Numbered from the stretch's first letter, positions 7,056 through 40,131 are shown. The stretch: 64,000 bases of DNA from Moniliella sp. 'wahieum' (GCA_003971905.1 RSEE01000081.1:1-64000); one strand, 5' to 3'. Numbers and translations: made by a program. Notes: generated by a model not told the origin, from the letters alone.

Positions 7056-8887
7056 TTATGCGCCCAACTGGAGTGCCTGCCACTCCGCCACCGAGCCTTT
7101 GCGCACATCCGGCGCACCTGGCAGCACGGGATCCACCTGTTGGTCACCGGTTTGCCCCATCCACCTCCTCCAGGGGTCAATACAGCAATCCGATCCCCGC
7201 GCCCCATGCGGGTAGGTAGTGCCTTGGGGCCCAAATTGATTATGCGCGCCGGCTGACCGAGGATGTGGTGCTTCCTTTCTTCTTCCGGCTGGGCGGCCAC
7301 TTGCTCGGCAGAGAGAAGGTCGCCATCCTCGCTGCGCCGCTGCTTGATCCACAAGTTAAGACCGACCTCACCTGGCTCGCCGCCTTCCATCCCGTACGGT
7401 CGATGCACCCTGCGCTCCGACAGAATCGACACCTGCATGCCCGGTTGGAGGAACTCAATCTCCCGCACCGTTCCATCGCCACCGTGGTAGGCCCCGGCTC
7501 CACCCGAGTGCGGCCGCAGAGCAAATTGCGTACCAGCACAGGAAACCTGCGCTCCATGACTTCAGCATCCGTAATCCGTGTGTTGGTCATGTGCACCTGC
7601 ACGCCCGACGTGCCGTTCCACCCAGGCCCGGCCCCGGAACCCCCGGCAATCGTTTCGTAGTTACTGATGCCTTGGCCGTTTGCGTCAACCGGCGTACCCA
7701 GGTCAGATTGTTGCAGCACCCCTGTGACGCGGCCGCAGCGTGGAAGGCGTGCAGGACGACATCGGTGATTCGCTGCGAGGTCAGGACGTTGCCGCCTACC
7801 ACAGCGGCTGTGTCGCTGGGGTCCAACAGGCATCCGGGTGGTATGACAACGTCGATAGGCACGAGGCAGCCTTGGTTCAGGGGCATGTCGATGTTGACCA
7901 TCGCCCTGAGGCAATAGATGATCGCACTGTACACTACACTCCGGGGGCAATTGAAATTGGCCAACACTTGTGGGCCGGTACCGGTAAAGTCAAAGGTCGC
8001 CTTCCCCTCCCGCGGGTCAATGTCAATCGCCAGTTGGATCGGTGTACCATCGTCCATCCAGTCGATCGCCTGGAGGCGTGTGCCCTGCTCCGATGCCACT
8101 TGTCGGAGCAGGTTGCGAACTGCAAGTTCGGCGTTAGACCGGATGTGGACCATATACTTCCCCATTGCCCGTTCGTCAGTTTCCACTCCGGATCAGAACA
8201 GAGGAGAGAGAGAGGGTATAATACGAACCTCTTGTACAACGGGCAAGGTCCACTTTGATGAGCGCCTGCAGCAACTTGATCCCTTTGTTGTTGGCGGCAA
8301 TTTGGGCTTGCAGGTCCGACTCAACGTCGCGAAACGCGCGCGAGCCTGCACAACCCGCGTACTGAGCAGGCTGGGTGACAAGGTAGTCATACAGCCCCTT
8401 GTGGTCATACACGCCCCTCCGGACCAACTTGAAACTGATGATCTGTGCCCTTCTTCCCACAGCGAAGTCGAAAGTGGGTGGCATGGAGCCCGGGAGGATG
8501 CCGCCAATGTCGACGTGGTGTCCGCGCGAAGCGCGGTATAGAAGATGATTTGGCCCTTGTCAAACACGGGGGAGATGACGGTCATGTCGGGCAGATGGCT
8601 GCCGCCTGCCTTGGGATGATTCGCCAGTAGCACATCCCCTCCTCGATGTTGCTCCCCAGCAGGCCAATCTGGTAGCGCACGGCAAACGACATGCTGCCCA
8701 GGTGGACGGGGAGGTGGGGGGCGTTGGCAACGAGCGCGCCGGTGGCATCAAAGATGGCCACCGAGTAGTCCAGCCGTTCTTTGATGTTGGCGCTGATGGC
8801 GGTCTTCTGCAGGGTCAGCCCGGCGGTCTCGGCGATGCCCTGGAAGCGGTGGCCAAAGAGCGAGAGGAGCACGGGGTCGGCCGGCAT
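7056..8887 (-). CDS. 5-oxoprolinase, hydantoinase B (C-terminal) half as a standalone gene; intron ~8157-8228
   Basis: Begins [15 protein letters not shown]...NIKERLDYS...[12 protein letters not shown], contains [41 protein letters not shown], and ends [15 protein letters not shown], like the eukaryotic OPLAH/OXP1 C-terminus. Confidence 0.93.
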
Positions 8888-9307
8888 TGGTGGGAGAGTG
8901 CAGTGGGTGGTGGTGGTCGGGGTCGTGGTGGCAGTGGCGGTGGCGGGGGCGGATAGCGGACACGCAGACAAACACTCAATCGAGCGTCAGGCGCGTCAGG
9001 GCGGACCAGCGCGGACGGTGCCAGTGGCGGTGGGGAAGCGTGCCGGTTGAGCGCTTATCGATGACAAACTGAGAAGAAAACACGCTATCTCCGGCGCTGT
9101 GCACGGACCACAGGGCGCCCTGTCAGCGCTGCGTGCTCCGAGCCAGTATCGCACCTCCGCCCGCCCAACCCTATCACGTCTATCACGCCTCACGACAGAC
9201 ATCGCGAGTCGGGCAACCCACCTTGCTTCCCTCGCACGCCACCCGCTGCGCTCCCTGGGCTCCTGGACCATCCGCACGCCCCTCCTCTGCTCTTGCCCCC
9301 ACCTGCC

Positions 9308-11615
9308 ATGGCTGCTGCCCCCACCCCCACCGCCGTCCCCCCGGCAAGAAGATCCGCATCGCGCTCGACCGCGGCGGGACGTTTCTCGACGCCGTCGCCT
9401 CCATCCCTGGGCGCGGCGACGTGGTGTTCAAGCTCCTGTCGCACGACCCTGCGCACTATGCCGATGCGCCGACCGAGGCCATTCGGCGCATCCTCCAGAT
9501 CGCCCTCGGCCGCCCCCTGCCGCGCACCGAAAAGCTCGATGCCAGTCCGATTGAAAGCATTCGGTTGGCCACGACGGTCGCGACCAATGCGTTGTTGGAG
9601 CGCAAAGGCCAGCGGCACGCGCTGGTCACTACCCAGGGGTTTGGCGACTTGCTGCGCATCGGTAACCAAGCCCGGCCGGATATTTTTGCCTTGGCCATTC
9701 ACAGGCCGGAGGTGTTGTTCTCCGCGGTGATCGAGGCGGAGGAGCGGGTGACGTTGGTGGGCGCGACCAACGACCCGCGCCACGCCGAGCAAGCCGTCAA
9801 GTTTGACCAGGGCAAGGTGGTGCGCGCCTATTCGGGACCCGACCTGCCCCCGCTGGTCTACAGGGATGGGGAGTGGGTCGAGCCGGAAATTGTGGAGGGT
9901 GTGTCGGGCGAAGCGGTGGCGATCCTCACCCCGCTCAACCAGCCCAAACTGCGTGCGGACCTGAAACAACTGAGGCGAGATGGGATCGACGCTTTGGCCA
10001 TCGTGTTGTTGCATGGATTCACGTTCCCCCAGCATGAAGATCTCATTGAACAGATCGCACGTGAAGAAGGATTCAAGTACATTTCCACCTCGCGCTTGCG
10101 CCCCGTGATCAAGGCGGTGGCAGAGAGGACACTCGGTCTCGGCCGATGCGTACTTGACGCCAGTGTTGCATGACTATCTCCACTCGTTTTTCCAGGGCTT
10201 TACGCCTTCGCTGCGAGATGGCACGGCGGGGACTAAGGTGGAGTTTATGATGTCCGACGGCGGCTTGACCCAGGTCGATCGCTTTTCAGGGCTGCAGAGT
10301 ATCCTCTCTGGTCCGGCCGGTGGCGTGGTCGGCATGGCCTTGACCACTTTTGATCCCGTGGATGGCCGTGCAGGTGATTGGGTTCGATATGGGCGGTACC
10401 TCGACAGACGTATCCAGGTACGACGGGCGGTACGAGCACGTGTTTGAGTCGACCACCGCCGGCGTGACGGTGGCTGCGCCGCAGTTGGACGTGAACACGG
10501 TGGCATCGGGAGGGTCGAGCATGCTGTCGTATCGCAATGGCATGTTTGTCGTTGGCCCGGAAAGTGCGTCAGCACACCCGGGCCCAGCTGCGTACCGCAA
10601 AGGAGGGCCATTGACCATTACGGACGCTAACCTCGTTACCGGCCGGTTGGCCGTCGAGATGTTCCCGCGCATCTTTGGGCCGAACGAAGACCAAGGCCTT
10701 GACTTTGACCGTTCCCTTGAACTCTTCACCCAACTTACGACGAAATTAACAAGGACCGGCAAGCGCAGGGCCAACCCAGCTACAGCGTGGATGAAGTGGC
10801 CCACGGCTTTTTGCGCGTGGCAAACGAGACGATGGCGCGGCCGATTCGCGCATTGACCGAAGCCAAAGGCTATGCTGCCTCACGGCACATTTTGGCCTCG
10901 TTTGGTGGCGCCGGAGGGCAGCATGCATGTTCATTGGCGCGCGGGCTGGGGATCAAGTTGGTGGTGGTGCACATGTACTCGTCTCTTTGTCGGCGTATGG
11001 GATGGCATTGGCAGAGCGGGTGCACGAAGTGCAAGTACCAGCGTCGATGCGTTTGGAGGCAGCGACGATGCCGGCGTTGCAAAGCGCTTCCAGGAGTTGG
11101 AGGAGCAAGTGGGACAAGTGTTGGGAGGAGAAGGGTTTGCACCCGAGCAAATCAGCTGCGAGCGCTACCTCCACCTCCGGTACGACGGTACCGACACGCA
11201 GCTCATGACGCTGGTCCCGCCCACGTGGGACGGCGTGGCGGACGCGTTCACGCAGGCGTACCAGCAAGAGTTTGGCTTTGTTTTGACGGACAAGGCGGTG
11301 ATGGTGGACGATGTGCGAGTCAAGGGCATCGGCCACGCCTACTCCCACCTGCCGCCGCCGCTGGTGGAGGACTTGCGGACGCACGAGGGAGGGTTTGTGT
11401 CCACCGCCGCGCACGGGTCCACAAGGCCGATCTACTTTGCTGGGCAGGGGCGTGTGCCTACGCCGGTGCTCAAGCTGGCCGAGGTGGGGGTGGGGGAGAA
11501 GGTGGTGGGGCCGGCGGTGTTGGTCGACGAGACGCAGACGCTGTTGGTGGAGCCGGCGTGCACTGCCTACCGCCTCGCGCGCGGCGTGGTGGTGGAGATC
11601 GGCGACGAGCACTAG
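9308..11615 (+). CDS. 5-oxoprolinase, hydantoinase A (N-terminal, ATP-binding) half as a standalone gene
   Basis: [92 protein letters not shown]; ends [16 protein letters not shown]...VVEIGDEH* with TAG at 11613-11615. Confidence 0.93.
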
Positions 11616-11801: not shown

Positions 11802-14800
11802 ATGGCCGTGGCTGCGGAGCTGCTCGGCGCACTGCAGACGCACCTGGCTGTGCCCAGCTCCAGGGCGCCGAGGCGCATGTGTGCTTCTGCTCGACACGGC
11901 CGCCTTCCTCGGCGCGCCCACCGCCGCCGCCTTGGCCACCGCCTGGACCCGCCTCGTCGCCACCCACCTCGCCTCGCACCCTGTCGTGCCCACGTCGGAC
12001 CTGGGCGCGCTGCGCACCCAGCTCGTCTCGTCGCCGCTCCTACTCCGCCCTGTCCAGCGTCTCATCATCCAGCACGCCCCCACCCCTCCGCCTCCCACTG
12101 TGGCACAGCGTCGTACGCGCCTACTTTGTCCCCGCCGCTCCTGCTGCTGCCAACGCCGAGGCAGACGCCGCAGACGTCACAGCTGCCCAAGCAGCAGCAG
12201 CAGCCGTGACACGCTGGGGACTACGTGTGTTGTCCCAGGCACAGGACAAGGCCGCCGTTGCGATTGCGACGTGGTCGCCTCCAAGCTGGATCTCGCTCTT
12301 CTCCTTGGTCCCGTCCTGTCTGCCGCCCCTGGAACTCCGCATGCGCACGCACAAAAGACCGAGTGGGACGAAACGCTGCACTTGCTCACTGCGTTCCCCG
12401 CCCGGATGGCCAATTTAGCCCAGGGCCATACGCCGACCAGTTTGGAAACGAGGTACGTCCTCCCTCTTCTTATCCTCCTTTCTGGGTGATTCCCACGGGT
12501 TGGGCAGCAAGCACCCTTTTCTCTCTGCTTGGTACAGCTGGCTGATGCGTGTCACATTCTGGGGGCAGTACATTCTACGCCGCCTGACGCGGCAGTGGGA
12601 CACGCTGCTCCGTCCGGGGAGGGGTCAGTTCCTGGCAGGCTTGGCGGTCCGCTTGCTCAAGCTGGGGTGGGTGCGCAATGCGAACGGGTGGTGGTACACA
12701 CTCCTGCCGCGCATGTTGGACCGATGGCAGCCTGGTCTGGGCTGGTCTACGAGCTACGTAGAGCATGGCGCGATGTGATGCGTGCGCTAGGACCCTACCG
12801 GGCCGAGGTGGTGGCGTCCCTGCTGGGATGGATTGAGCAGCGATCGGGGCAGGTCCACCCTCCCCTGGTGGGAACGGAGTTGACCGATCCAACGAGGCAG
12901 GAAGAGGATGTACGTTTGGCGTATGTACTCGCGCTCGTCTGTCCGCCAACCTCCACGCCACCTGTGGGCTCCCCGGCCTCCCCTCGGACGCGGACTCCGA
13001 CGCGGACTCAGAAGAGGACGAGGAGGAGGAAGAGCAGATGGACATATTGCTACCCAGTGTGGGATGGAGCTCTGTGTCGCTTGCGCGCGCCTTGGTCCTA
13101 TGGTCCTCCTGGCGCCGTCGCCCGAGAGGACCGAACAGCTGCTCCGCCGTACGTGACCCATGGGGGGATAAGACCACCATCTTAGCTCAAGGCCGGAGCA
13201 ACACGTGGCACGTGCAGTCTTGCTTACGGTGGCGCTAAACCGGCTGAAGTTCCTAGCTGCCCTCTGCCCCCTTGCCTTCTTCCACAGCGGAACCTATGGC
13301 AGCGTCGACCTCGGCCCATGGGCCAGGGAAATCCGGTAGTGCAGCTCCACTCACGCGGGAGCAGGAACCGAGACGATCGTCCCGTTTCTGCTAAAAACAC
13401 GGCACGACCCAGCGTTCCTAAACGGTGTCCAGGCGTACCTTGACCACCCGTCCCCGGCCATTCGGCTCGTGGGGCTGGCAGTGGCCGAAATCTTGGTTGG
13501 GACGGTGCGCACGCTTGTTCCCACCGAGGTTCCCTTGGACTTTGGCGTGTGGGGCGGCACGGGGCAGGGCAAGACCTAGCGCGTACCTTGCGACAGATGG
13601 AGTGGCCTGTCGTCCCACTCTCCCGCGGCGGTGTGCTGGGCATAGTGCCAGCGTCCGATGAGGCTGGTGGGGCAGACCAGCCAGGCGAAAGTAACAAGGT
13701 GGAGGAAAGTGCGGATCGACTGGCCGATCTGACGTTGATGCGTCCGGCGCGGACCATGCCCCGTCCTCGGCGCTTGGGGGCGCATCGCGCCCCGCACAAA
13801 CCACTGATCCAGCTCCTCGACTCGGACGGGAAGGAAGAAGAAGACACAAGCGCCCGTTCTCGGCCCTCGTGCCGTCTTCCGAGTCGGAGGGAGAGGATTC
13901 CTCTGCGGACGAACAAGATCACGACCTCGATCCCAATTCCGAGCTCGACCCAGGGGACGTGCTGTCTTTGTTAGAGCGCGCCCGCGGGGGCGGGAGGCAG
14001 AAGTACAAATGACCGAACGCACGAAAGAGTTCAGTGCGTCCGATGCGGCGCAGAAGCGGGACGCAATGGCGATGCGCATGCCTGGGCCGCGCCGACGTGC
14101 GGTGGTGTACGTGCATGAGCTGCCGCCTTTGCTCCGAGGCAAGAGAGAGGAAGTGCGGCATGCGCCACGTGCTGCCGTCGCTGGTGCGTGCCAAGCGAGG
14201 GTGGGGGAGCGAGGTGCAAGACTCGGCGGTGGAGTTGGTGCATCAGCTGGTGCAGCTGGACGACCGGTTTGGTCTGAAAGCGTTCGAGGAGTGGATCGCC
14301 GTTGGCATGGTCGCACTCTCGTCTCGGCGCCCGTGGGGCGGTAGCGATCGAGCTGGTGTTCAGCCCGCACCTGTCCTTGGTGCGAAAGGCGATGTTGCTC
14401 AGTGCGTTGCTGTATGCGGCGCTGGAGGTGCGGGGTGACATGCCGGCGCTATCTCGGCCGGCGCCCACCAAGATCGCAGACCAAGTTGCCGCCCATGTTG
14501 GCTTGCTCGTCCGCCATGCCGTCGAGCGCGCCAGGCACGAGGGCGAAGCGCACGTGCCTTCTCTTGCACGCCGTACGGCGCTCACTGCCACTCCACTACG
14601 GCCACCACCCGCGCCGCCCAGCGCCGGCATCGCCCCATCACCCCCGCGGCAAAGCAGGAAGACTACCTTGCGCCGCTGATCACACGTACCTTGGCCCACC
14701 TCACGCTCCAGGGGCAGGGGGGCTACTTTACCCGTTCGTCGGTGTCTCCGTGGCCGATGGCCACGCTGCCGCCGCTGCTGCTGCCCTGGCTGCTGCAGAC

Positions 14801-15128
14801 GGTGGCGGGACTGCTGCCTACGGCGGGGGCCTGCGGACGCAAGCCATGAGCTGGCGCTGGGGTGAGCAGGGCGGCGTACGCGTTGCCCTCGGAGCGTGCT
14901 GTGCCGATACAGACAGCAGCGATGGAGGTGGTGCTGCTGGCGCTGCAGGGGCCGGTGGCGGGGGGTAGCGGGGGTGGACTGGGCGGCGGTGCAGCAGCAG
15001 GCGGAGAGCGTGTTTGCAGTGCCGGACGCGGCGGCGGTGGCGGTGGCGGCGGCGGTGCAGCTGGCGGTGGGCGAGGCGCGGGCGGATGGAGCGAAGCACA
15101 GAGCCTCCTGGCGCTCGAGGGATGCTGA
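11802..15128 (+). CDS. TEL2: Telomere length regulation protein Tel2 (TTT complex); intron ~12453-12537; multiple indels
   Basis: AFPARMAN, acidic linker, and Telomere_reg-2-like segment AVVYVHEL...LPSLVRAKRGWGSEVQDSAVELVHQLVQLDDRFGLKAFEE...MVAL followed by LSLVRKAMLLSAL. 3' end approximate. Confidence 0.75.
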
Positions 15129-17007
15129 GGAGAAGCAGCCGCGTCGAATGGCCAATTGTGCTTGCCATGTCCCATCGACCAAGTCGAGTATGTAGTAGGC
15201 ATGGCAGTCGGTAGAACACAGTCCACACGCACCCAAAAATATGCCTCTTGGCCGAATCGAACGACCGATCTTCTCATGCCGTAGCAGTGCTACTAGTGAG
15301 ATGCTTTACCACTGAGCCAAAGAGGCTTGCGTGGGCGTTCCTTTTCCCATCACACGTGACACGGCGAGTACGTAATCAGCCACCAGCGTTGTCCCCGCCT
15401 ATCCTTCCTGCAGAGTAGAGTGCAGAGAAGCTCGCCTACCCCCACCGCGCGAAGCGTAAGTACTAGTTGCCCCCCCCGCCTCGCTTAGGATGAGGAAGAC
15501 ATGGGTGATCCACCGCCCCGGCTCCTCCCGGCGGAGCCACGCACGGTCCACATGTACCCCCACCCCTTGCTCGCAGCGGGGCAGTGGGACCAACCAAGAA
15601 CAGATACCTGATCGATGATCCCCCTCCCCCGCCCTTGCTTCTGCTTCTCTGTGGCTGACGCTCCTTCCCCCGCATCCATCATCCAGCCCAAGCCATGCGC
15701 CGAGGCGTCTAGGGCCACGCCGCCGGTCCCCTGGACACCCACTGCCTCCGTGTCCTGGCCATCGCCGGCCCGCTCCGCCCTTCCCGTTCCGCCCCCCACT
15801 CCGCGCTGCTGCGCGCAGGAAAGGTGTCCGATCCATCCAGGCCACGTGCAGGCTGATGGGTGGACGTGAGATGTGATGTGACAAAGGGAAATGGGAACGT
15901 GTGTTGGACGAAAACATCATCTGCGTGTGGACATTGGGGGGAGGGTCGTAGTGTAGATCGATGCATCATTGTGCCGCATTTTCTGCTTCGTTTACGTGGC
16001 AGGCCTGGGCGGCGATGTTACCGGGGGGGGGTCGCTTATTCACCACCGAAGAAGAAACGGACGTTCCGTGCTGCACTGCATGTTCCTCATCAGCCCCCAT
16101 TCGGCATTGCACCTTCTGCTCCCTGCACTCGCCTTCCGCCTCCTTTTACCGTTTTTAGATGGTGTATAGTCTGCTCCCCGGGCGTGTCACATCCAGCTGG
16201 CTCTCTGCGGAGAAGTGCAAGGCGCTCGCTTAATTCGGTCCAGTCCTTCAGGTCTGTATCGCTGCATCCAGACGATCAAACCGAACAAGATGGGGGGTCG
16301 GTTGGAAGTTAGTTCACATACTCGACCACAGCTCCAACTGTCAGAGTCATGGGTAAGTTTTTCCCGAAATGTCCATAGAAAGAGAGTGGAAACAAGTTTG
16401 TGAGTATAGAGGCCAGAGAAAGCGGACAAAATGCGCTGAGGGCGGCATCGTCCATGCGCCATGTCCTACCGACCTTCTCCGACAACAGGTTTGTATAGGT
16501 ACGTTTACAAAGAAAAAGAGCCAACCGCGGTTAGTTGTCGGCGCCCAGCGCGGCGCGTGCAGACGCAATGTACAAAGGAAGGAGGGGGAGGGAGAGTGGA
16601 TGGCGGGGCAGCTCTGTTGGGGCGCGGATCGAGACCACATCGATCATCAATGTCGCTGGCGAGGAGGTTGGCGGCGAAAGGACGAGGAGGAGACGAGGTG
16701 GTGGCTACTCAATGTGGCAAAGGGGGAGGATACGCAATCGGAAAGTGCCACAGGCGGCACCAGGCAGCACAGGGCGCTGGCGCCGCGCTCTCCTGGTCAC
16801 GCGTGGCGACGAGCAGCCAGACTGATTAAAGATTGCTGATTGCTGATTGCTGATTGGTCTCTGAGAGGCGGTGCCGATCGGAGCAGATGCTGGGGTAGCT
16901 AAGCCGCCTTGCCCTCCGCCGCCCCGCATCGCCCCTCTCTCTCCCTCCGGCTTCTGCCTCCTGCCCACCTCACCGCGCCTCCGTAGATCCCCACCCCGGC
17001 CCCCACC

Positions 17008-18383
17008 ATGCCCACCGACTCCGAAACCAACCCTGCCGCCGCCCTCCCGCCGACGCCTCCGACGACGAGGGAGAGGTGGTGGCGCTGACCATCAAGGGTC
17101 CCGCTGGTCTCCAGCTGCCCATCCAGATTGGGCTTGCTGCGCCCGTGCGCAAGCTCAAGCACGCCATCCAGCAGGCCAAGCCTGACTTTCCCGCCACATC
17201 GCTGCGCCTCATCTATGGCGGCAAAGTGCTCAAGGACGACGTTCTGTTGGAGAAGTACCATATTCAGGGCGGCCATACCATCCACATGGTCCACTCTGGT
17301 GGCGCCCCCCGCCCTGCTTCCAGCACCACGACATCCACCACCACCGCCCCACCGCTGGCACAGGACCCGGTACCGGCGCAGCTTCGCCAGCTCCTGCAAC
17401 CTCCACCCCGGCGGCGAGTGCGGCGGAACGGGCCGAGGCTCGTGGGGTGCCCAGCACGTTCGGTGCCGGGCAGACGTTCACCAACAACCCGCTTTCTGCG
17501 CTGCTGCGTCCTGATCTGGCCGGTCCGCATATGGCCGCGCTCAACCCTTTTGCGGGCATGAATGGCAACCCGTCCGACCCGAACTTTATGATGAACTTGA
17601 TGGCGGATGAGAGTTTCCAAGCGCAGGCGCGCGAAGCGCTGGCCCAACCGGGCATTGTGGACCAGATCCTGCTTATGCGACCGCAGTGCGGCCGTACCGT
17701 GCCATGCTCGAGACCATGCTCCAGTCCGAACAGTTTCGCGAAATGATTACCAACCCCGAAATGGTACGGCGCAGCCAACAACTGGCCGGCGCGATGGGCG
17801 CAGGTGCAGGTGGCATGCCTGGCTTGGGCCCCTTTGGCTCAGGAATGTTTGGTGCACCGCCTGCCACAGGCGGTGGCGGCGGTGCACTGGCGCTGCTCAG
17901 TGGCCCACATTTGCTCCCCCTGCCAACCCGGCGGCGCCAACGCCAGGCAGCACCGAATCGCCTCCCACTGGTGCGGCGGGTACCACAGGTGCTACAGGTG
18001 GTGCCAACCCGGGCCGGGCGCACCTGGGTCAGCGGACTCGCTGGAGCAACTTCTGCACGCCTTGGGAGGCGGAGCTGGCGGGGGGCCTGGGATGGGATTC
18101 CTCCCCCCAACCTGTTTGGCGACCTTGGCGCGGCAGGGGGACTAGGTGGGTTGGGTGGCCTGGGTGGCCTGGGTGGTATGGGTGGCCTAGGCGGTGCCGG
18201 CGGTGCTGGTGCTGGAGCGTCGGCTGGCGATTCTCGCCCCCCGAAGAACGGTATTCCAACGAGCTTGCCCAGTTGCAGGGAATGGGCTTTACCAATGGCC
18301 CGGCCAACCTGCGGGCGTTGTTGATCAGCGGTGGGAGCGTCGAGGCCGCCGTGACGCTCCTGCTCGAGGGAGGGGGGATTTGA
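17008..18383 (+). CDS. DSK2: Ubiquilin (UBL-STI1-UBA) proteasome shuttle
   Basis: N-terminal UBL (LRLIYGGKVLKDD...HTIHMV), Met/Asn/Pro-rich STI1 region, C-terminal UBA PPEERYSNELAQLQGMGFTN...NLRALLISGGSVEAAV. Confidence 0.93.
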
Positions 18384-18851
18384 AAACGAGAAGGGGACGA
18401 GGGCCGGGGCCCGAGGGAGCAGACATCGACAGCAACGTGCTTCTTCGTACCTGGTTGGGCCTTTCTGCTGCCCGATCCCATGGGGGGCGGCCAGGCACAA
18501 GACAAGCGGATTGGTGTCTCGGGGCTCCGACCTTTGCACTTTGTATCAACGTTGCTCGATCGGCCTTGTTTGCTTGCCCCACGCGTCCAGCCCAGTCTAG
18601 GGCAGCGCCCTTGTGTGTGTGTAACTGATGTCTGGCATCGGCTGGGGCGTGGTGCTGGCGATGGCGTTCGTGCGTGCTGTCTGTGCGCGGCTGTGAGAAT
18701 GGAATGAGGGATGGGGTGCTGCTTGCTGGAAGCGAGTGAGGGCGAGGTGGAGATAGATGCTTGGTTGACTGTCTGTTGTCCAGAGATGTCGCCGGGCAGA
18801 ACAACCGGCTGCCACACAGGTCGAATGCAGATGTGATAACTGCAGCATCAC

Positions 18852-18941
18852 TCCTCAATGGTCCAACGGCTATGATGTCACGCTTTCAAGGCCTGTGTGG
18901 TCTGTTCCGTGAAGACCCGGGTTCGACTCCCGGTTGGGGAA
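18852..18941 (+). tRNA. tRNA-Glu(UUC) with 18-nt intron (18889-18906)
   Basis: Acceptor TCCTCAA/TTGGGGA, anticodon stem TCACG/CGTGA with CT-TTC-A loop, T-arm CCGGG-TTCGACT-CCCGG, downstream T-run. Confidence 0.93.
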
Positions 18942-19248
18942 TTTCTTTTGGCGGCGGGATGGTGATGTGATGGTGATAGATGGGATGCGCGGGTGGGAGC
19001 AGCGCCACTTCGATCGGAGTTCCGCTGGGCGGCGTCCCGCGGCCGCAGTCACATGTGATGTCGCATCGCCGAGGGCTGCACTGCCACTCCGTACTCCTCC
19101 CACTCCCCACCGCCGTCTGCCGCTGTCCGGCGACGACCTGGGCGCTTGGCTGGCATGCAACCCCAGCAACGCCACGCCTGTCGATGCGCCCCAGAGCATC
19201 TCGGACCCTTCGTTCGTTCCCCCGCACGCCGAGGGGCCCGCCCCGCGC

Positions 19249-22200
19249 ATGACGAGCGACGACTCGGCCAGCGAGTACTCCAACCAGGACTCCTTCGCCC
19301 CCTCGTCCTTTGACCACAGAAGCAGCGCCCCCAGCCACGCTCTTCCGTCTTCCCTGTCCGCCTCAATGGCCGTGCCGCCCAGCCGCCCCTGCCGTCCAGC
19401 GACGTGTCCGATGTCGAGTCCCAGCTTGCCCAACTCAACCTTCACCTCACCGCCGCCGCCGCCGCAGACCAGCGCCCCCCTGCTCCTCCTGCCTCCCATG
19501 TTTCCGACGCGACGACCGACGTTGAGCGGCAAGCGGCGCAGCTCACATCGCAGCTCGCTGCTCTGTCGTCTCACTTATCTCCCGCGCTGCCCGAGCCCAA
19601 CGCTGCTCGCCACTCGTGCCTTCTCCCCGCTGCGGCCGCTGCTGGCACGCCCCACCACGCACCCTCCCTCAGCTCCGGGTCCGAGTATGGTTCCGATGCC
19701 GATACGCACGAGGAGGTGCTCACCCGCCCCCCGCGCCGCCGCGGAGTTACGGTGGCCAGTGCCGCTCCTATGGAGGTGGCATCTGTCACCGCCGAGCAGC
19801 TGTCTGTGCAAGCTGCGCTCGAGGCCGAGGCGGACGCCCGCAATCCCAATCGTCCACGTACGTTGCAGGAGGCGCGAGCGCGGGCCAAAGCACGTGCCCT
19901 GGCCAAGCAGTCCCTGTCGCATCCTCTTCCCTTGCCTGCACCTCCTCTGGAACCCAAGAGTCGTCTCAAACAAAGTCTCCGCTGTCTGCTCCCATCATTG
20001 CTTTCGACCCAGCTTTGACCTTGGCCGAGCGCTCCGATTCGCCCACTCGTCGCCCCGCCCGTTCCCCGCGCCGTTTGTCAGACCAGCCAGCCATGGACGG
20101 TGCCTGTCCCATATCGACGCCCGGCGGGGACTCCCCGCTGCTTCAGCAAGACCGTTGGTTCAGACTGCCGTGCCCGGCAAGTTGCGTAGCGAGGGGGAAG
20201 ACACCGAGGAGGGCGTACCTGGAGATACAACCATGATTGCCGCACCTTCACCTGGCTTGGCCCCATCTGCTGAGATCGTCACGTCACCTGATGTATCCAT
20301 CGCTTCGCTGCCCACCTTTGGCCATGCTACGTCGCAGGGAATGTCCATTTCGTCCTCAGGGCGCTTACGCCAACGCACAAGACGCTCCCTGCGCTTCTGC
20401 CCGCCCCTGCCCCGTCGCTTCACCATCGATGGACGTGTTTGGCATTGACTGTCCCTGGCCCCGGCCCTTTTTTCAGTGACGCCCCAGGCCCGCAGGCACC
20501 CGGCGGTCGCTTCCTTCGAGCGGCAACCAACTTGGGTGCGGTACGCAAAATTACCGAGAACCATTTCCCGCCCAAGGCAGCGTCCATTAGCGGACCGTTT
20601 CCGACAACGGCCTCGGTCGCAGTAGCCTATGCTGAAGCGGCAGCCGACTTGCTGGCCACGCCCACGGGGCTGCCGACCTGGGTCAACCTCATGTCCAATC
20701 CGTCGAACCGTGGTGCGTATTAAGTTGTCTGTTGATCCTTATATCCGATGGTCTTGCGCCATGCGTGAATGAACTGCTGACCTGTATCTCTTGCGTTAGG
20801 AGATACTGTGACTCCGCGCAAGGCGCAAGCGCCCATTCCGTCCGAGTTTGGTGGGATTTGGACAACGACGACGATCAACACGGGCTTGTCCGATGTCACC
20901 TTTCCCGTCCGCGGCGACGGTGGTCGGGCTGTAGCGTTACCCTTTTCGTCGTCCGAGCCGGTTATCTCGTCTCCCATTGATTCTTCTCCGCACTCGCCCT
21001 GCCGATGGACCAGGAACGCTGACCACGTCGCACGGAGACGAGCAGGCGAAAGTGCAGGCGCTGAGCGAGATGCCTCGTAACCTTCCCTACCCAGGTGCCT
21101 ATGCCATGCAGCAGCAACAGCAGAACCGTGCCCACATCCAGCACGTCGCACAGCAACAACAAAGTCTCACTCGTGCCCAGCGTCCGCGTGCTGAACCCAA
21201 CGCGAAGTCCGCGGGTTAGTCCTGGGCCCCTTTCGTGCCCGAGCACCCGAATCTCCATCGGGATTTACTTTTCTACGAAGGGGTGAGACTCCATCATCAG
21301 GCACGATGCCGCTCATCTCCAAACCCTTGCCGTCTCCCAAACCCGAATCGGTTTCTTCTTCATCCGACAGGTCGCTGTCGCGGAGAACGTTGCCCGGTGG
21401 GATCGGGGGTGGCCAAGCGCCCGCCTTACCGACGATTGATGTGATGCAGACGTCGATGCAGACGCAGACGCCGATGCAGACACCGATGCAGACGCCAATG
21501 CAGACGCGACACTTTCGGGCCTGGCAACCATCGTATCAGTGCAGTCTCGAGGTTCCGCGTATGTTGCGGGACGCGCCGCGCCCGATGCACTCGGTCCGAG
21601 CCAGTATCGATTTACCGCACGGCTCGCCGCACGCGCCTGGTTTGACGCCCATCGTCCGTCGGTGGCAGTGGGCACGGGTTTGGCTCGACGCGCGTCTGTC
21701 GCCCCGCGCGGAACGGATCGAGGAGTGGAAACAGGGATTGGACTTGGCTGCGTTGGAGCGCATGTGCGATGCGCTTCCTCGGCCGAACCACGCGACTTGG
21801 CCCACGCCCTACGACGGTCTCAGGATGACGTCCAGGCCATCTCGCTCTACCTCAAACGAGCTGCCGGCGCACGCAAACCCAGTCCCGTCCGCCGATCCAA
21901 AATGTCCCTCTTGGGCGGCCGGTGACCCGAACTGGGACCCCCCTACTGTGCCCTGTACCCCCTTCCCCCTTCTGCGTCTCTCGCCTCCCTCGCCCCCTCG
22001 CCTCCCGACGGGTGCGGGGGGTAGGCTAAGCACCGCGGACCCAATGAATTCATACCCTTGCTTTCCCTTGCAGCCTTGTTCCCCGCACCAATGCATCCGC
22101 TTCGCTGACGTGTCCAACGACGTGTCTTCCCCCCCACCATGATTGAGCGTCGGCGCCCCCAAAGCGTCGAACTCCAGTAGAATGGATACAGTGGTACGCA

Positions 22201-39028: not shown

Positions 39029-40131
39029 ATGGCGAACGCGACGGTGCGCGATGCCAAGTGGGTGCACAGCACCAACCCGCAGTTTCTGGTGGACCAAGTG
39101 CTGCGGACACGCATCTACGACAGTCGGTATTGGAAAGAGCAGTGTTTTGCATGAATGCAGCGTCGCTGTTGGACCGTGCGTGGAGGTGCAGGCTGTGGGC
39201 GGTACGGTGGGCGCAAGGCAAAAGCCCACGCCATTCTTGGCGTTGACACTCAAGTTGCTCCAGATCCAGCCGCAACGGGAAATCGTGCTGGAGTACTTGG
39301 CTGCCTCGTTCAAGTACCTCCAAGCCCTTGCTGCGTTCTACATTCGTCTCACTTTTTCCGCAGTGGACATTTACGAGCTGCTGGAACCGCTGTTGGAGGA
39401 TTACCGTAAACTGCGGTATGCCCAACCGAGTATGTCATCTAAATCGTCTTTGCTCTCCCTCTCATTGTCCCCCTTGTGCTGCCGCGGGACTCAACCCACT
39501 GACCCAACCGTCTGATTGACTTGCCCTTGCAGGCGGGGAGTTTCGCCTGACGCACATGGACATTTGTGGATGAGTTGTTGACGAGGCAAGGGTGTGCGAT
39601 GTGACGTTGCCGCGCCTGGCCAAGCGAGCGGTGGTAGAGGCCAACGAGGGGTTGCCACCGCGCGTGTCGCCGTTGGAGGATGCGCTGTTAGCCGGGACCG
39701 GCAGCGGGGAGGATTCAGATGACTCGACGCCGGAGCGGCAAGCGCGCAAGCAGAAGTTGCGCCATGCCAAGCTGCTCCGCCAAGAGCGCGAGCGACAAAT
39801 GGCGTTGCGCACGCACCACCCTGCCTCGCCACACGAGCAAGAGGAAGAAGAGATCGATTACCCTTCCCAAGAACTCTCTTCGGCCGACGACAACGACAAT
39901 GACGCCGACGACGTCGGCTACATCTCCCGCAGCCCCAGTCGGAGTGTCAGCCCGGACCGGCGCCCATCGGGGGCGAACCGAGCCAAGTCGCGAACCCAGT
40001 CTCCCTCTCCCTCCCCTCCCCGTTCTCCCGATGCGATGAGCTACCAGTCTCGCTCTCCCTCTCGCTCACCCGACCGGGCTTTGTCTCCCGGCTATCAATC
40101 TCGCTCTCCTTCCCGGTCGCCGGGGAGGTAA
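39029..40131 (+). CDS. PRP38: Pre-mRNA splicing factor Prp38; intron ~39416-39532; RS-rich tail
   Basis: MANATVRDAKWVHSTNPQFLVDQVLRTRIYDSRYWKEQCFA, KPTPFLALTLKLLQIQP, FKYLQALAAFYIRL, LEPLLEDYRKLR, VCDVTLPRL. Confidence 0.95.

Follow-up and report, generated by a model that had tools for sequence, protein, structure and literature searches.

Within a 64,000-nucleotide stretch of the genome of Moniliella sp. 'wahieum' (GCA_003971905.1 RSEE01000081.1:1-64000; hereinafter the window, with positions counted from its first letter), two divergently oriented neighboring genes carry, respectively, the A-type and the B-type domains of the hydantoinase/oxoprolinase superfamily, which in the eukaryotic 5-oxoprolinases (yeast OXP1 and animal OPLAH) are joined in a single polypeptide. 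The B (hydantoinase-B) gene runs on the minus strand from an ATG at 8887-8885 to a TAA at 7058-7056, while the A (hydantoinase-A) gene runs on the plus strand from an ATG at 9308 to a TAG at 11613-11615, with 420 bp (8888-9307) between the two start codons. The A product ends in ...VVEIGDEH and the B product begins with [11 protein letters not shown]. Accordingly, the coordinates, orientation, termini and spacer of the head-to-head arrangement reported in an earlier note on this DNA are all confirmed from the sequence and from Pfam matches. The features of the pair are as follows:

7056..8887, minus strand: gene for the B subunit (Hydantoinase_B) of a split 5-oxoprolinase; Pfam PF02538, with tblastn/blastp matches to the B-only proteins P0123, P0122 and P0126
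8254..8887, minus strand: exon 1 of B, from the Met to ...ALIK, read from the sequence
8186..8253, minus strand: putative intron of B, 68 nt, GTGGAC...CTGAT...AG, with GT..AG ends and a CTGAT branch-like site
7056..8185, minus strand: exon 2 of B, including the TAA stop at 7056-7058, from sequence reading and homologue alignment
7145..8640, minus strand: span of the frame breaks in B, from homologue alignment, the break at 8165 lying in or near a G4 run
8888..9307, no strand: intergenic spacer, presumed shared promoter region, 420 bp, 67% G+C
9055, 9085, 9171 and 9180 (9055..9185), no strand: four HGATAR motifs of the GATA-factor type in one orientation, from a motif scan
9308..11615, plus strand: gene for the A subunit (ATP-binding); Pfam PF05378, PF01968 and PF19278, collinear with P0001
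9337..9342, plus strand: apparent one-base deletion in a C6 homopolymer of A, from homologue alignment

The plus-strand pieces match Hydant_A_N, Hydantoinase_A and Hydant_A_C (spanning 1-176 of PF05378, 8-277 of PF01968 and 14-179 of PF19278) and the minus-strand pieces Hydantoinase_B (1-519 of PF02538). The profiles are thus covered end to end, one product carrying the A-type domains and the other the B-type domain, as befits the superfamily. Since the two halves of one enzyme directly adjoin, the arrangement is far from what chance would produce. With an X placed at each frame break, A reads through for about 771 amino acids (aa), is intronless and is collinear with P0001, an uninterrupted relative of 837 aa. 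The B read-through comes to about 580 aa once the 68-nt segment at 8186-8253 is excised, which brings back the spacing between the KGI and HIR blocks seen in the alignment consensus of the family. Hence, this segment, noticed earlier as a spliceosomal intron, is probably just that.

As given, neither gene is a single open frame: about 14 one-base breaks interrupt the 4.1 kb of coding sequence, so that the layout previously described for the genes stands but the uninterrupted frames do not, these breaks having been overlooked. Mapping against P0001 for A and against B-only proteins for B places six switches in A (the C-run at 9337-9342, 10123, 10373, the A-run at 10743-45, the T-run at 10985-87 and the A-run at 11081-83) and those of B at about 8640, 8531, 8165, 7698, 7528 and 7145, together with a compensating pair near 8445-8470. 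The coordinates of homologues and profiles are gap-free across every one of these switches, and a short homopolymer coincides with or adjoins most of them (C6 at 9337-42, A3 at 10743-45, T3 at 10985-87, A3 at 11081-83 and G4 near 8165). The ATG at 9308 itself comes into frame with the first conserved block of A only if the C-run at 9337-9342 gains one base. Comparable gapless switches are seen in four other genes of the window:

22.5-23.7 kb, minus strand: Pex19, two frame switches, at about 23245 and 23050
29.6-31.8 kb, minus strand: OPT oligopeptide transporter, one frame switch, at about 30440
38.8-39.6 kb, plus strand: PRP38, an essential splicing factor, one frame switch, at about 39152-39176
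52.4-53.4 kb, minus strand: endonuclease V, one frame switch, at about 53185

The error rate in A and B is about one per 300 bases, and the whole window appears to derive from an unpolished, indel-prone assembly. Beyond the breaks themselves, both halves are well preserved. The X-joined read-throughs (771 codons for A and 580 for B) are free of in-frame stops over all 1351 codons. Set against 49 other sequences, drawn from basidiomycete split, fungal fused and bacterial proteins, A retains every one of the 93 invariant columns and 198 of the 201 with a conservation of at least 90%, as compared to 194-200 of about 202 in the controls. B retains 93 of 97 invariant columns, with three of the four misses falling inside one local double frame slip. 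Both phosphate-binding motifs of A, P1 (DxGGTxTD) and P2 (DxGGT), as defined for the actin-like ATPase fold in the legend to Figure 2 of PMC8453981, are present with all positions that are invariant in the 49 others; the sole variable position of P1 is L in the window protein and T, C, L and S in 39, 6, 3 and 1 of the others, respectively.

As there is no in-frame stop, as the conserved columns are kept, and as similar breaks occur in other genes of the window, we read the A and B breaks as probable indel errors of the assembly rather than as gene decay. One could alternatively view the locus as a decaying pseudogene pair, with the breaks being true mutations and the enzyme either lost or supplied by other copies. 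This would fit the density of breaks (about 14 in 4.1 kb of coding sequence), the long branches of both halves, the greater number of departures from conserved columns in B than in the controls, and the subtelomere-like setting beside a retroelement that is described below. However, decay is hard to reconcile with 1351 codons devoid of stops, with the retention of 93 of 93 (A) and 93 of 97 (B) invariant columns where most misses belong to the local double slip, and with the like breaks in the essential PRP38 as well as in Pex19, endonuclease V and OPT, breaks that favor short homopolymers; moreover, the long branch is common to the intact relatives P0001, P0121 and P0122. We therefore rejected decay on the grounds of conservation, absence of stops and the like breaks in other window genes, and regard it as quite improbable.

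The separation of A and B is by no means peculiar to this locus. A search for longer relatives of the A fragment yielded proteins with A-type Pfam domains only for 120 of the best 120 matches listed (507-882 aa), and a search with the B fragment yielded proteins with PF02538 only for, again, 120 of the best 120 (353-966 aa). The matches listed come from Ustilaginomycotina, Pucciniomycotina, Agaricomycotina, Wallemia and Malassezia, with A represented in a tremellomycete too, and many of them already bear such annotations as '5-oxoprolinase' or 'related to 5-oxoprolinase' (A-only) and 'Hydantoinase B/oxoprolinase' (B-only). Typical sizes in Basidiomycota are about 770 aa for the A-only and about 580 aa for the B-only proteins. 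Among these matches are also the A-only and B-only proteins P0004 and P0151, which fall among those of Ustilaginomycotina while their records are named Adiantum nelumboides; they probably reflect fungal contamination of the fern assembly.

Fused proteins were sought with a full basidiomycete B-only query among proteins of at least 1.75 times its length. All 120 longer relatives listed carry both A and B domains and show 56-65% identity to the basidiomycete B; they belong to Mucoromycota, Glomeromycota, chytrids, Zoopagomycota and Ascomycota, along with one insect, and no basidiomycete is found among the organism-labelled fused matches listed (18 of the 120 have no label). Similarly, when representatives were searched exhaustively with an A-only protein as query, one A-only cluster came first and the next-best clusters were 1222-1375 aa in length. 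Hidden Markov models built on the A-only and on the B-only proteins abut when matched to the fused proteins and together span them (e.g., 1-737 and 737-1314), and hence the break lies exactly at the junction of the A and B domains, where the earlier note had located it in the linker. The locus thus shows the hallmarks of the basidiomycete split type, namely read-throughs of 771 and 580 aa, a break at the junction and a place in strongly supported clades (SH-aLRT of 99 for A and 100 for B; see below). It does not encode a single A-B polypeptide of about 1250-1350 aa, the halves being on opposite strands here and likewise separate in all the basidiomycete relatives listed. By these comparisons, the split is the normal state across sampled Basidiomycota, and the window locus counts as one ordinary split 5-oxoprolinase among those of this phylum. 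Full-text literature searches found no published description of such a phylum-wide split of the oxoprolinase.

Phylogenetic trees, computed as quick IQ-TREE searches with Shimodaira-Hasegawa-like approximate likelihood ratio test (SH-aLRT) support, comprised 52 rows for B and 50 for A; the insect protein P0354 (1803 aa, an aberrant gene model) was removed from both, and the bacterial loci L077 and L079, which have no A part, were removed from the A tree. In the B tree, the basidiomycete split clade (100) is sister to the fused proteins of Ascomycota (94), and fungi separate from bacteria with a support of 99. In the A tree, the corresponding values are 99, 86 and 100. The window halves lie inside Ustilaginomycotina in both trees (95 and 100), and the order of the fungal groups is roughly that of the species tree. 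This supports vertical descent with one probable fission before the sampled Basidiomycota diverged. The closest relatives are P0001 for A (75% identity) and P0121 and P0122 for B (about 75%). The clade that these form with the window is more divergent than its neighbors, with A identities of 55-60% versus 66-67%; because P0001, P0121 and P0122 are as far from other Ustilaginomycotina as the window proteins are, the divergence is real and not an effect of sequence errors. Within B, residues at about 380-423 (7.5-7.7 kb) show changes of Y to N, H to Q, Y to F and L to V at sites where 51 other B sequences reach a conservation of at least 90%. The same changes are present in P0122; these clade-specific substitutions might mark a functional shift.

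The fission proposed in the earlier note is therefore borne out as regards descent from a fused A-B gene, which the trees support, but not as an event at the window locus, given that the best 120 A and the best 120 B matches are all split. Likewise, its view of the halves as eukaryotic holds in both trees, which place them on the fungal and not the bacterial side of the OPLAH/OXP1 grouping (SH-aLRT 99 and 100); nesting within bacterial clades, named there as the outcome that would point to transfer, is not what the trees recovered, as both halves group with the fused fungal proteins. The same note had taken separate subunits to be typical of prokaryotes, a generalization that fails for the nearest bacterial relatives. 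Collected with the B alignment, these comprise 80 loci (L001-L080) with 46-62% identity in the best tblastn segment (most 51-57%), as against the 56-65% of the fused fungal proteins, the nearest being from Nitrospinota, SAR324, Desulfobulbia and some Cyanobacteriota/Melainabacteria. Inspection of 12 of these loci for their open reading frame (ORF) structure revealed a fused A-B ORF of 1206-1307 aa in ten. The other two, L077 and L079 from Snowella, are B-only, with no same-strand ORF of more than 400 aa able to encode A in either 4-kb flank. As the nearest bacterial relatives thus carry fused A-B ORFs, fused OPLAH-type genes are not exclusive to eukaryotes.

These results also bear on whether the split or the adjacency might be an artefact (a misjoined inversion) or the genes might have been acquired from bacteria. 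The assembly is visibly error-prone, and two-subunit forms do exist in bacteria (described in PMC8453981; compare L077 and L079). Nevertheless, separate A and B proteins with equal termini are found in every basidiomycete match listed, the halves fall among the fused proteins of fungi, bacteria being on the outside (SH-aLRT 99-100), and indels cannot invert a gene, in keeping with the earlier argument that genes on opposite strands cannot owe their split to indel errors. Descent from bacterial HyuA/HyuB- or CapAB-type genes organized in operons is further at odds with the divergent orientation and with the putative spliceosomal-type intron in B. We accordingly reject horizontal transfer from bacteria, with bacteria outside the fungal clade in both trees (SH-aLRT 99, 100), and consider this class of explanations as a whole extremely improbable.

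What sets the locus apart is its linkage. Based on locus tags and contigs, A and B are adjacent in none of the 18 relatives from Ustilaginomycotina and Pucciniomycotina for which both genes are listed. In nine of these, locus tags with the same prefix have widely spaced numbers: Tilletia maclaganii, T. horrida, Pseudozyma flocculosa (A, PFL1_00797; B, PFL1_00156), Exobasidium rhododendri, Rhodotorula paludigena (A, Rhopal_006302; B, Rhopal_000916), R. kratochvilovae, Rhodosporidiobolus ruineniae, R. nylandii and the fern record that probably reflects fungal contamination. In nine more, A and B lie on contigs of unequal size: Sympodiomycopsis, Ceraceosorus, Violaceomyces, two Malassezia, Tilletiaria, two Ustilago and Sporisorium reilianum. 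Being unlinked is the usual state of basidiomycete A and B genes rather than a part of their definition, and the window departs from it: this adjacency is the only unusual feature of the locus. Thus, a survey of relatives, as had been suggested, finds the split itself to be common to the basidiomycete matches listed and the head-to-head pairing in 0 of 18. With A and B unlinked in these species, no inversion at the site need be invoked for the origin of the pair, nor the inverted duplication and reciprocal domain loss entertained earlier, and the linkage is most simply read as secondary.

Conversely, the head-to-head layout could be an ancestral scar of the fission, left by an inversion that broke the A/B linker, and retained here while lost elsewhere. 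An inversion with a breakpoint in the linker yields exactly such a geometry, fungal gene order erodes quickly, and adjacency recurs in one agaricomycotine species, in Cryptococcus. Against this stand the 0 of 18 count in Ustilaginomycotina and Pucciniomycotina and the position of the window clade, which is nested in Ustilaginomycotina rather than basal and would demand many independent separations. We hence deem retention of the original layout very improbable.

The Cryptococcus case comes from C. neoformans H99, where Tables S1b/S3 of PMC7067042 place the B-only CNAG_06873 (chr 5 14471-18539) next to the A-only CNAG_06872 (chr 5 16856-19548), and assign both A and B domains to a further gene, CNAG_02464. 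According to the same source, the adjacent pair lies about 14-19 kb from the chromosome end, is flagged as subtelomeric, has zero counts in two strains and is jointly up-regulated in one lineage; the passage concerned calls them 'two 5-oxoprolinase genes' and does not remark on their being halves. The counts given for them in its tables are fractional shares of overlapping annotations. The window pair resembles this one in being an A-only and a B-only gene adjacent to each other in a basidiomycete, near a chromosome end there and in a subtelomere-like setting here. Compared by annotation only, it differs in that the annotated Cryptococcus spans overlap by 1.7 kb, unlike the 420-bp divergent spacer of the window.

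Regarding that spacer, it may reasonably be seen as a bidirectional promoter. Its four HGATAR motifs, grouped within 130 bp, compare with a window mean of 0.47 in every 420 bp; by a post hoc look, 0.9% of sliding windows reach four or more. As a lead only, the cluster could represent sites for GATA factors of nitrogen control. In the basidiomycete Rhodosporidium toruloides, several '5-oxoprolinase' proteins rise after rapamycin in the proteomic data reported in PMC11982011. Taken together with the motif cluster, this response suggests, again as a post hoc lead and by analogy, a possible nitrogen/target of rapamycin (TOR)-type control via GATA factors.

The remaining features of the window provide the setting of the pair:

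1-414: satellite with a 40-nt unit in 10.3 copies, truncated at the window start
480-567: degenerate CCCTAA-like tract
1190-2972, possibly to about 5.7 kb, minus strand: retroelement ORFs (RVT_1, gag-type aspartyl protease)
13.2-15.3 kb: Tel2-like telomere length regulator
16.9-18.4 kb: ubiquitin-like protein with UBA
44.6-45.3 kb: YjeF_N protein
48.8-49.5 kb: Erv1/Alr sulfhydryl oxidase
60.4-61.1 kb: mitochondrial carrier

The satellite and the CCCTAA-like tract look like a subtelomeric region or an interstitial telomere remnant, and the retroelement ORFs lie about 1.3-4 kb past the 3' end of the B gene. A repeat search over 1-13 kb found no inverted repeat flanking the A/B pair and no long repeats flanking the retroelement ORFs, and ORFs of 110 aa or more, scanned against Pfam, showed no family in 5.7-7.0 kb or 11.7-13.2 kb. 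The Tel2-like, UBA, YjeF_N, Erv1/Alr and carrier genes have no evident tie to the pair.

This setting raises the alternative of an accessory subtelomeric A/B cassette, paralogous to core copies (unlinked A and B genes or a fused gene) at other places in the genome. Such a pair would have stayed together, perhaps moving as one piece, and possibly acquired a shifted lactam substrate. The satellite, the telomere-like tract and the retroelement ORFs, all within 7 kb of the pair, are compatible with it, as are the fast evolution of both halves, the alteration of several highly conserved B positions in the clade, and the co-occurrence in C. neoformans H99 of the adjacent subtelomeric CNAG_06872/CNAG_06873 with the both-domain CNAG_02464 in the tables of PMC7067042. 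Yet, both halves nest in Ustilaginomycotina among ordinary split genes and retain catalytic-type motifs, while the second copy is pure conjecture with the view confined to the window; an accessory cassette is thus unlikely.

Taking all this together, we consider it quite likely that the locus codes for both subunits of the basidiomycete split 5-oxoprolinase, which arose through a single old fission at the domain junction and here came to lie head to head, with the breaks being assembly errors. The observation made in the earlier note is thereby partly confirmed and its interpretation partly supported. Several points weigh against this conclusion and should be borne in mind. First, the substrate is predicted from orthology, in a family whose members act on hydantoins, caprolactam and ketones. 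Second, a very recent pseudogene remains conceivable, the 420-bp junction could be an assembly join, and the subtelomere-like locus could be an accessory paralogous pair with the core copies elsewhere in the genome. Third, of the 210 columns of B with a conservation of at least 90%, 13 are altered, versus 0-7 in the controls, and the branches are long, with an A stem of 0.81 (common to P0001) and a B end branch of 0.92 versus a median of 0.26; long branches and changed B columns could together mean a relaxed or shifted function. Finally, the trees are quick searches without bootstraps and contain no Agaricomycotina B and no Cryptococcus sequences, and the count of unlinked relatives, resting on tags and contigs, presumes that locus tags are numbered by position.

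If the split 5-oxoprolinase reading is right, the locus would be an ATP-dependent orthologue of yeast OXP1 and animal OPLAH. Its plus-strand gene would yield an A subunit of about 770 aa with an actin-like ATPase fold and two phosphate-binding motifs, and its minus-strand gene a B subunit of about 580 aa (Hydantoinase_B). A and B are predicted to assemble as a heteromer, by analogy to the fused enzymes and to CapAB; this heteromer would convert 5-oxoproline into glutamate by opening its lactam ring, with ATP being consumed. Historically, one fission at the domain junction would have preceded the radiation of the sampled Basidiomycota and left A and B on separate chromosomes or contigs in most relatives, whereas in the window lineage they would have come to sit head to head, 420 bp apart, probably with common regulatory DNA.

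Comparison with known systems is consistent with this scheme. The pair is like the other basidiomycete split genes in domain content, lengths, break point and membership of the same clade in both trees, and differs in that those are unlinked (18 of 18) while these are divergent neighbors 420 bp apart. It is homologous over its full length to the fused S. cerevisiae OXP1/YKL215c, mammalian OPLAH and the fungal proteins P0241-P0360, with conserved phosphate-binding motifs and presumably an equal reaction; those are single polypeptides of about 1280-1350 aa, as opposed to two genes here. Kumar and Bachhawat are said to have found in 2010 that the yeast 5-oxoprolinase is functionally separable into two domains. 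With the bacterial CapAB (6yra), HyuA/HyuB and the acetone/acetophenone carboxylases the pair shares separate alpha (ATP-binding) and beta subunits of equal Pfam families, though the kinship is distant, those genes form operons and act on other substrates, and the window halves fall outside the bacterial clade. The closest solved structures by sequence include the caprolactamase 6yra (E of 9e-38 for A and 1e-35 for B) and the fused N-methylhydantoinase 7hk5 (7e-54 for A and 4e-43 for B). In its treatment of caprolactamase, PMC8453981 describes CapA and CapB as a two-subunit enzyme encoded in one operon and the oxoprolinases as corresponding to fused lactamase subunits.

For annotation, it follows that the A and B products should be labelled as subunits of one enzyme and not as a new fission; ORF-based gene calls would come out fragmented across the window, and, short of polishing the assembly, callers would overlook or shorten A as well as B. 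The phylum-wide split, for which the literature searches found no description, is a more interesting by-product than the locus itself. It is a clean, rare genomic change common to all sampled Basidiomycota that may be usable as a phylogenetic marker, and a natural experiment indicating that a fused eukaryotic enzyme can work as two chains. As for the linkage in the window, we tentatively raise a scenario that we still regard as doubtful, in which the ancient fission scattered the halves and one lineage of Ustilaginomycotina re-paired A and B divergently over a GATA-rich spacer in a subtelomere-like place, maybe as a Cryptococcus-like cassette, with both subunits evolving faster. If true, the re-pairing would illustrate, in a eukaryote, how selection can bring the genes for the subunits of one enzyme back into a cluster. 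Together with the Cryptococcus pair, as tabulated in PMC7067042, the window linkage could thus help probe whether selection for co-regulation draws split subunit genes together.

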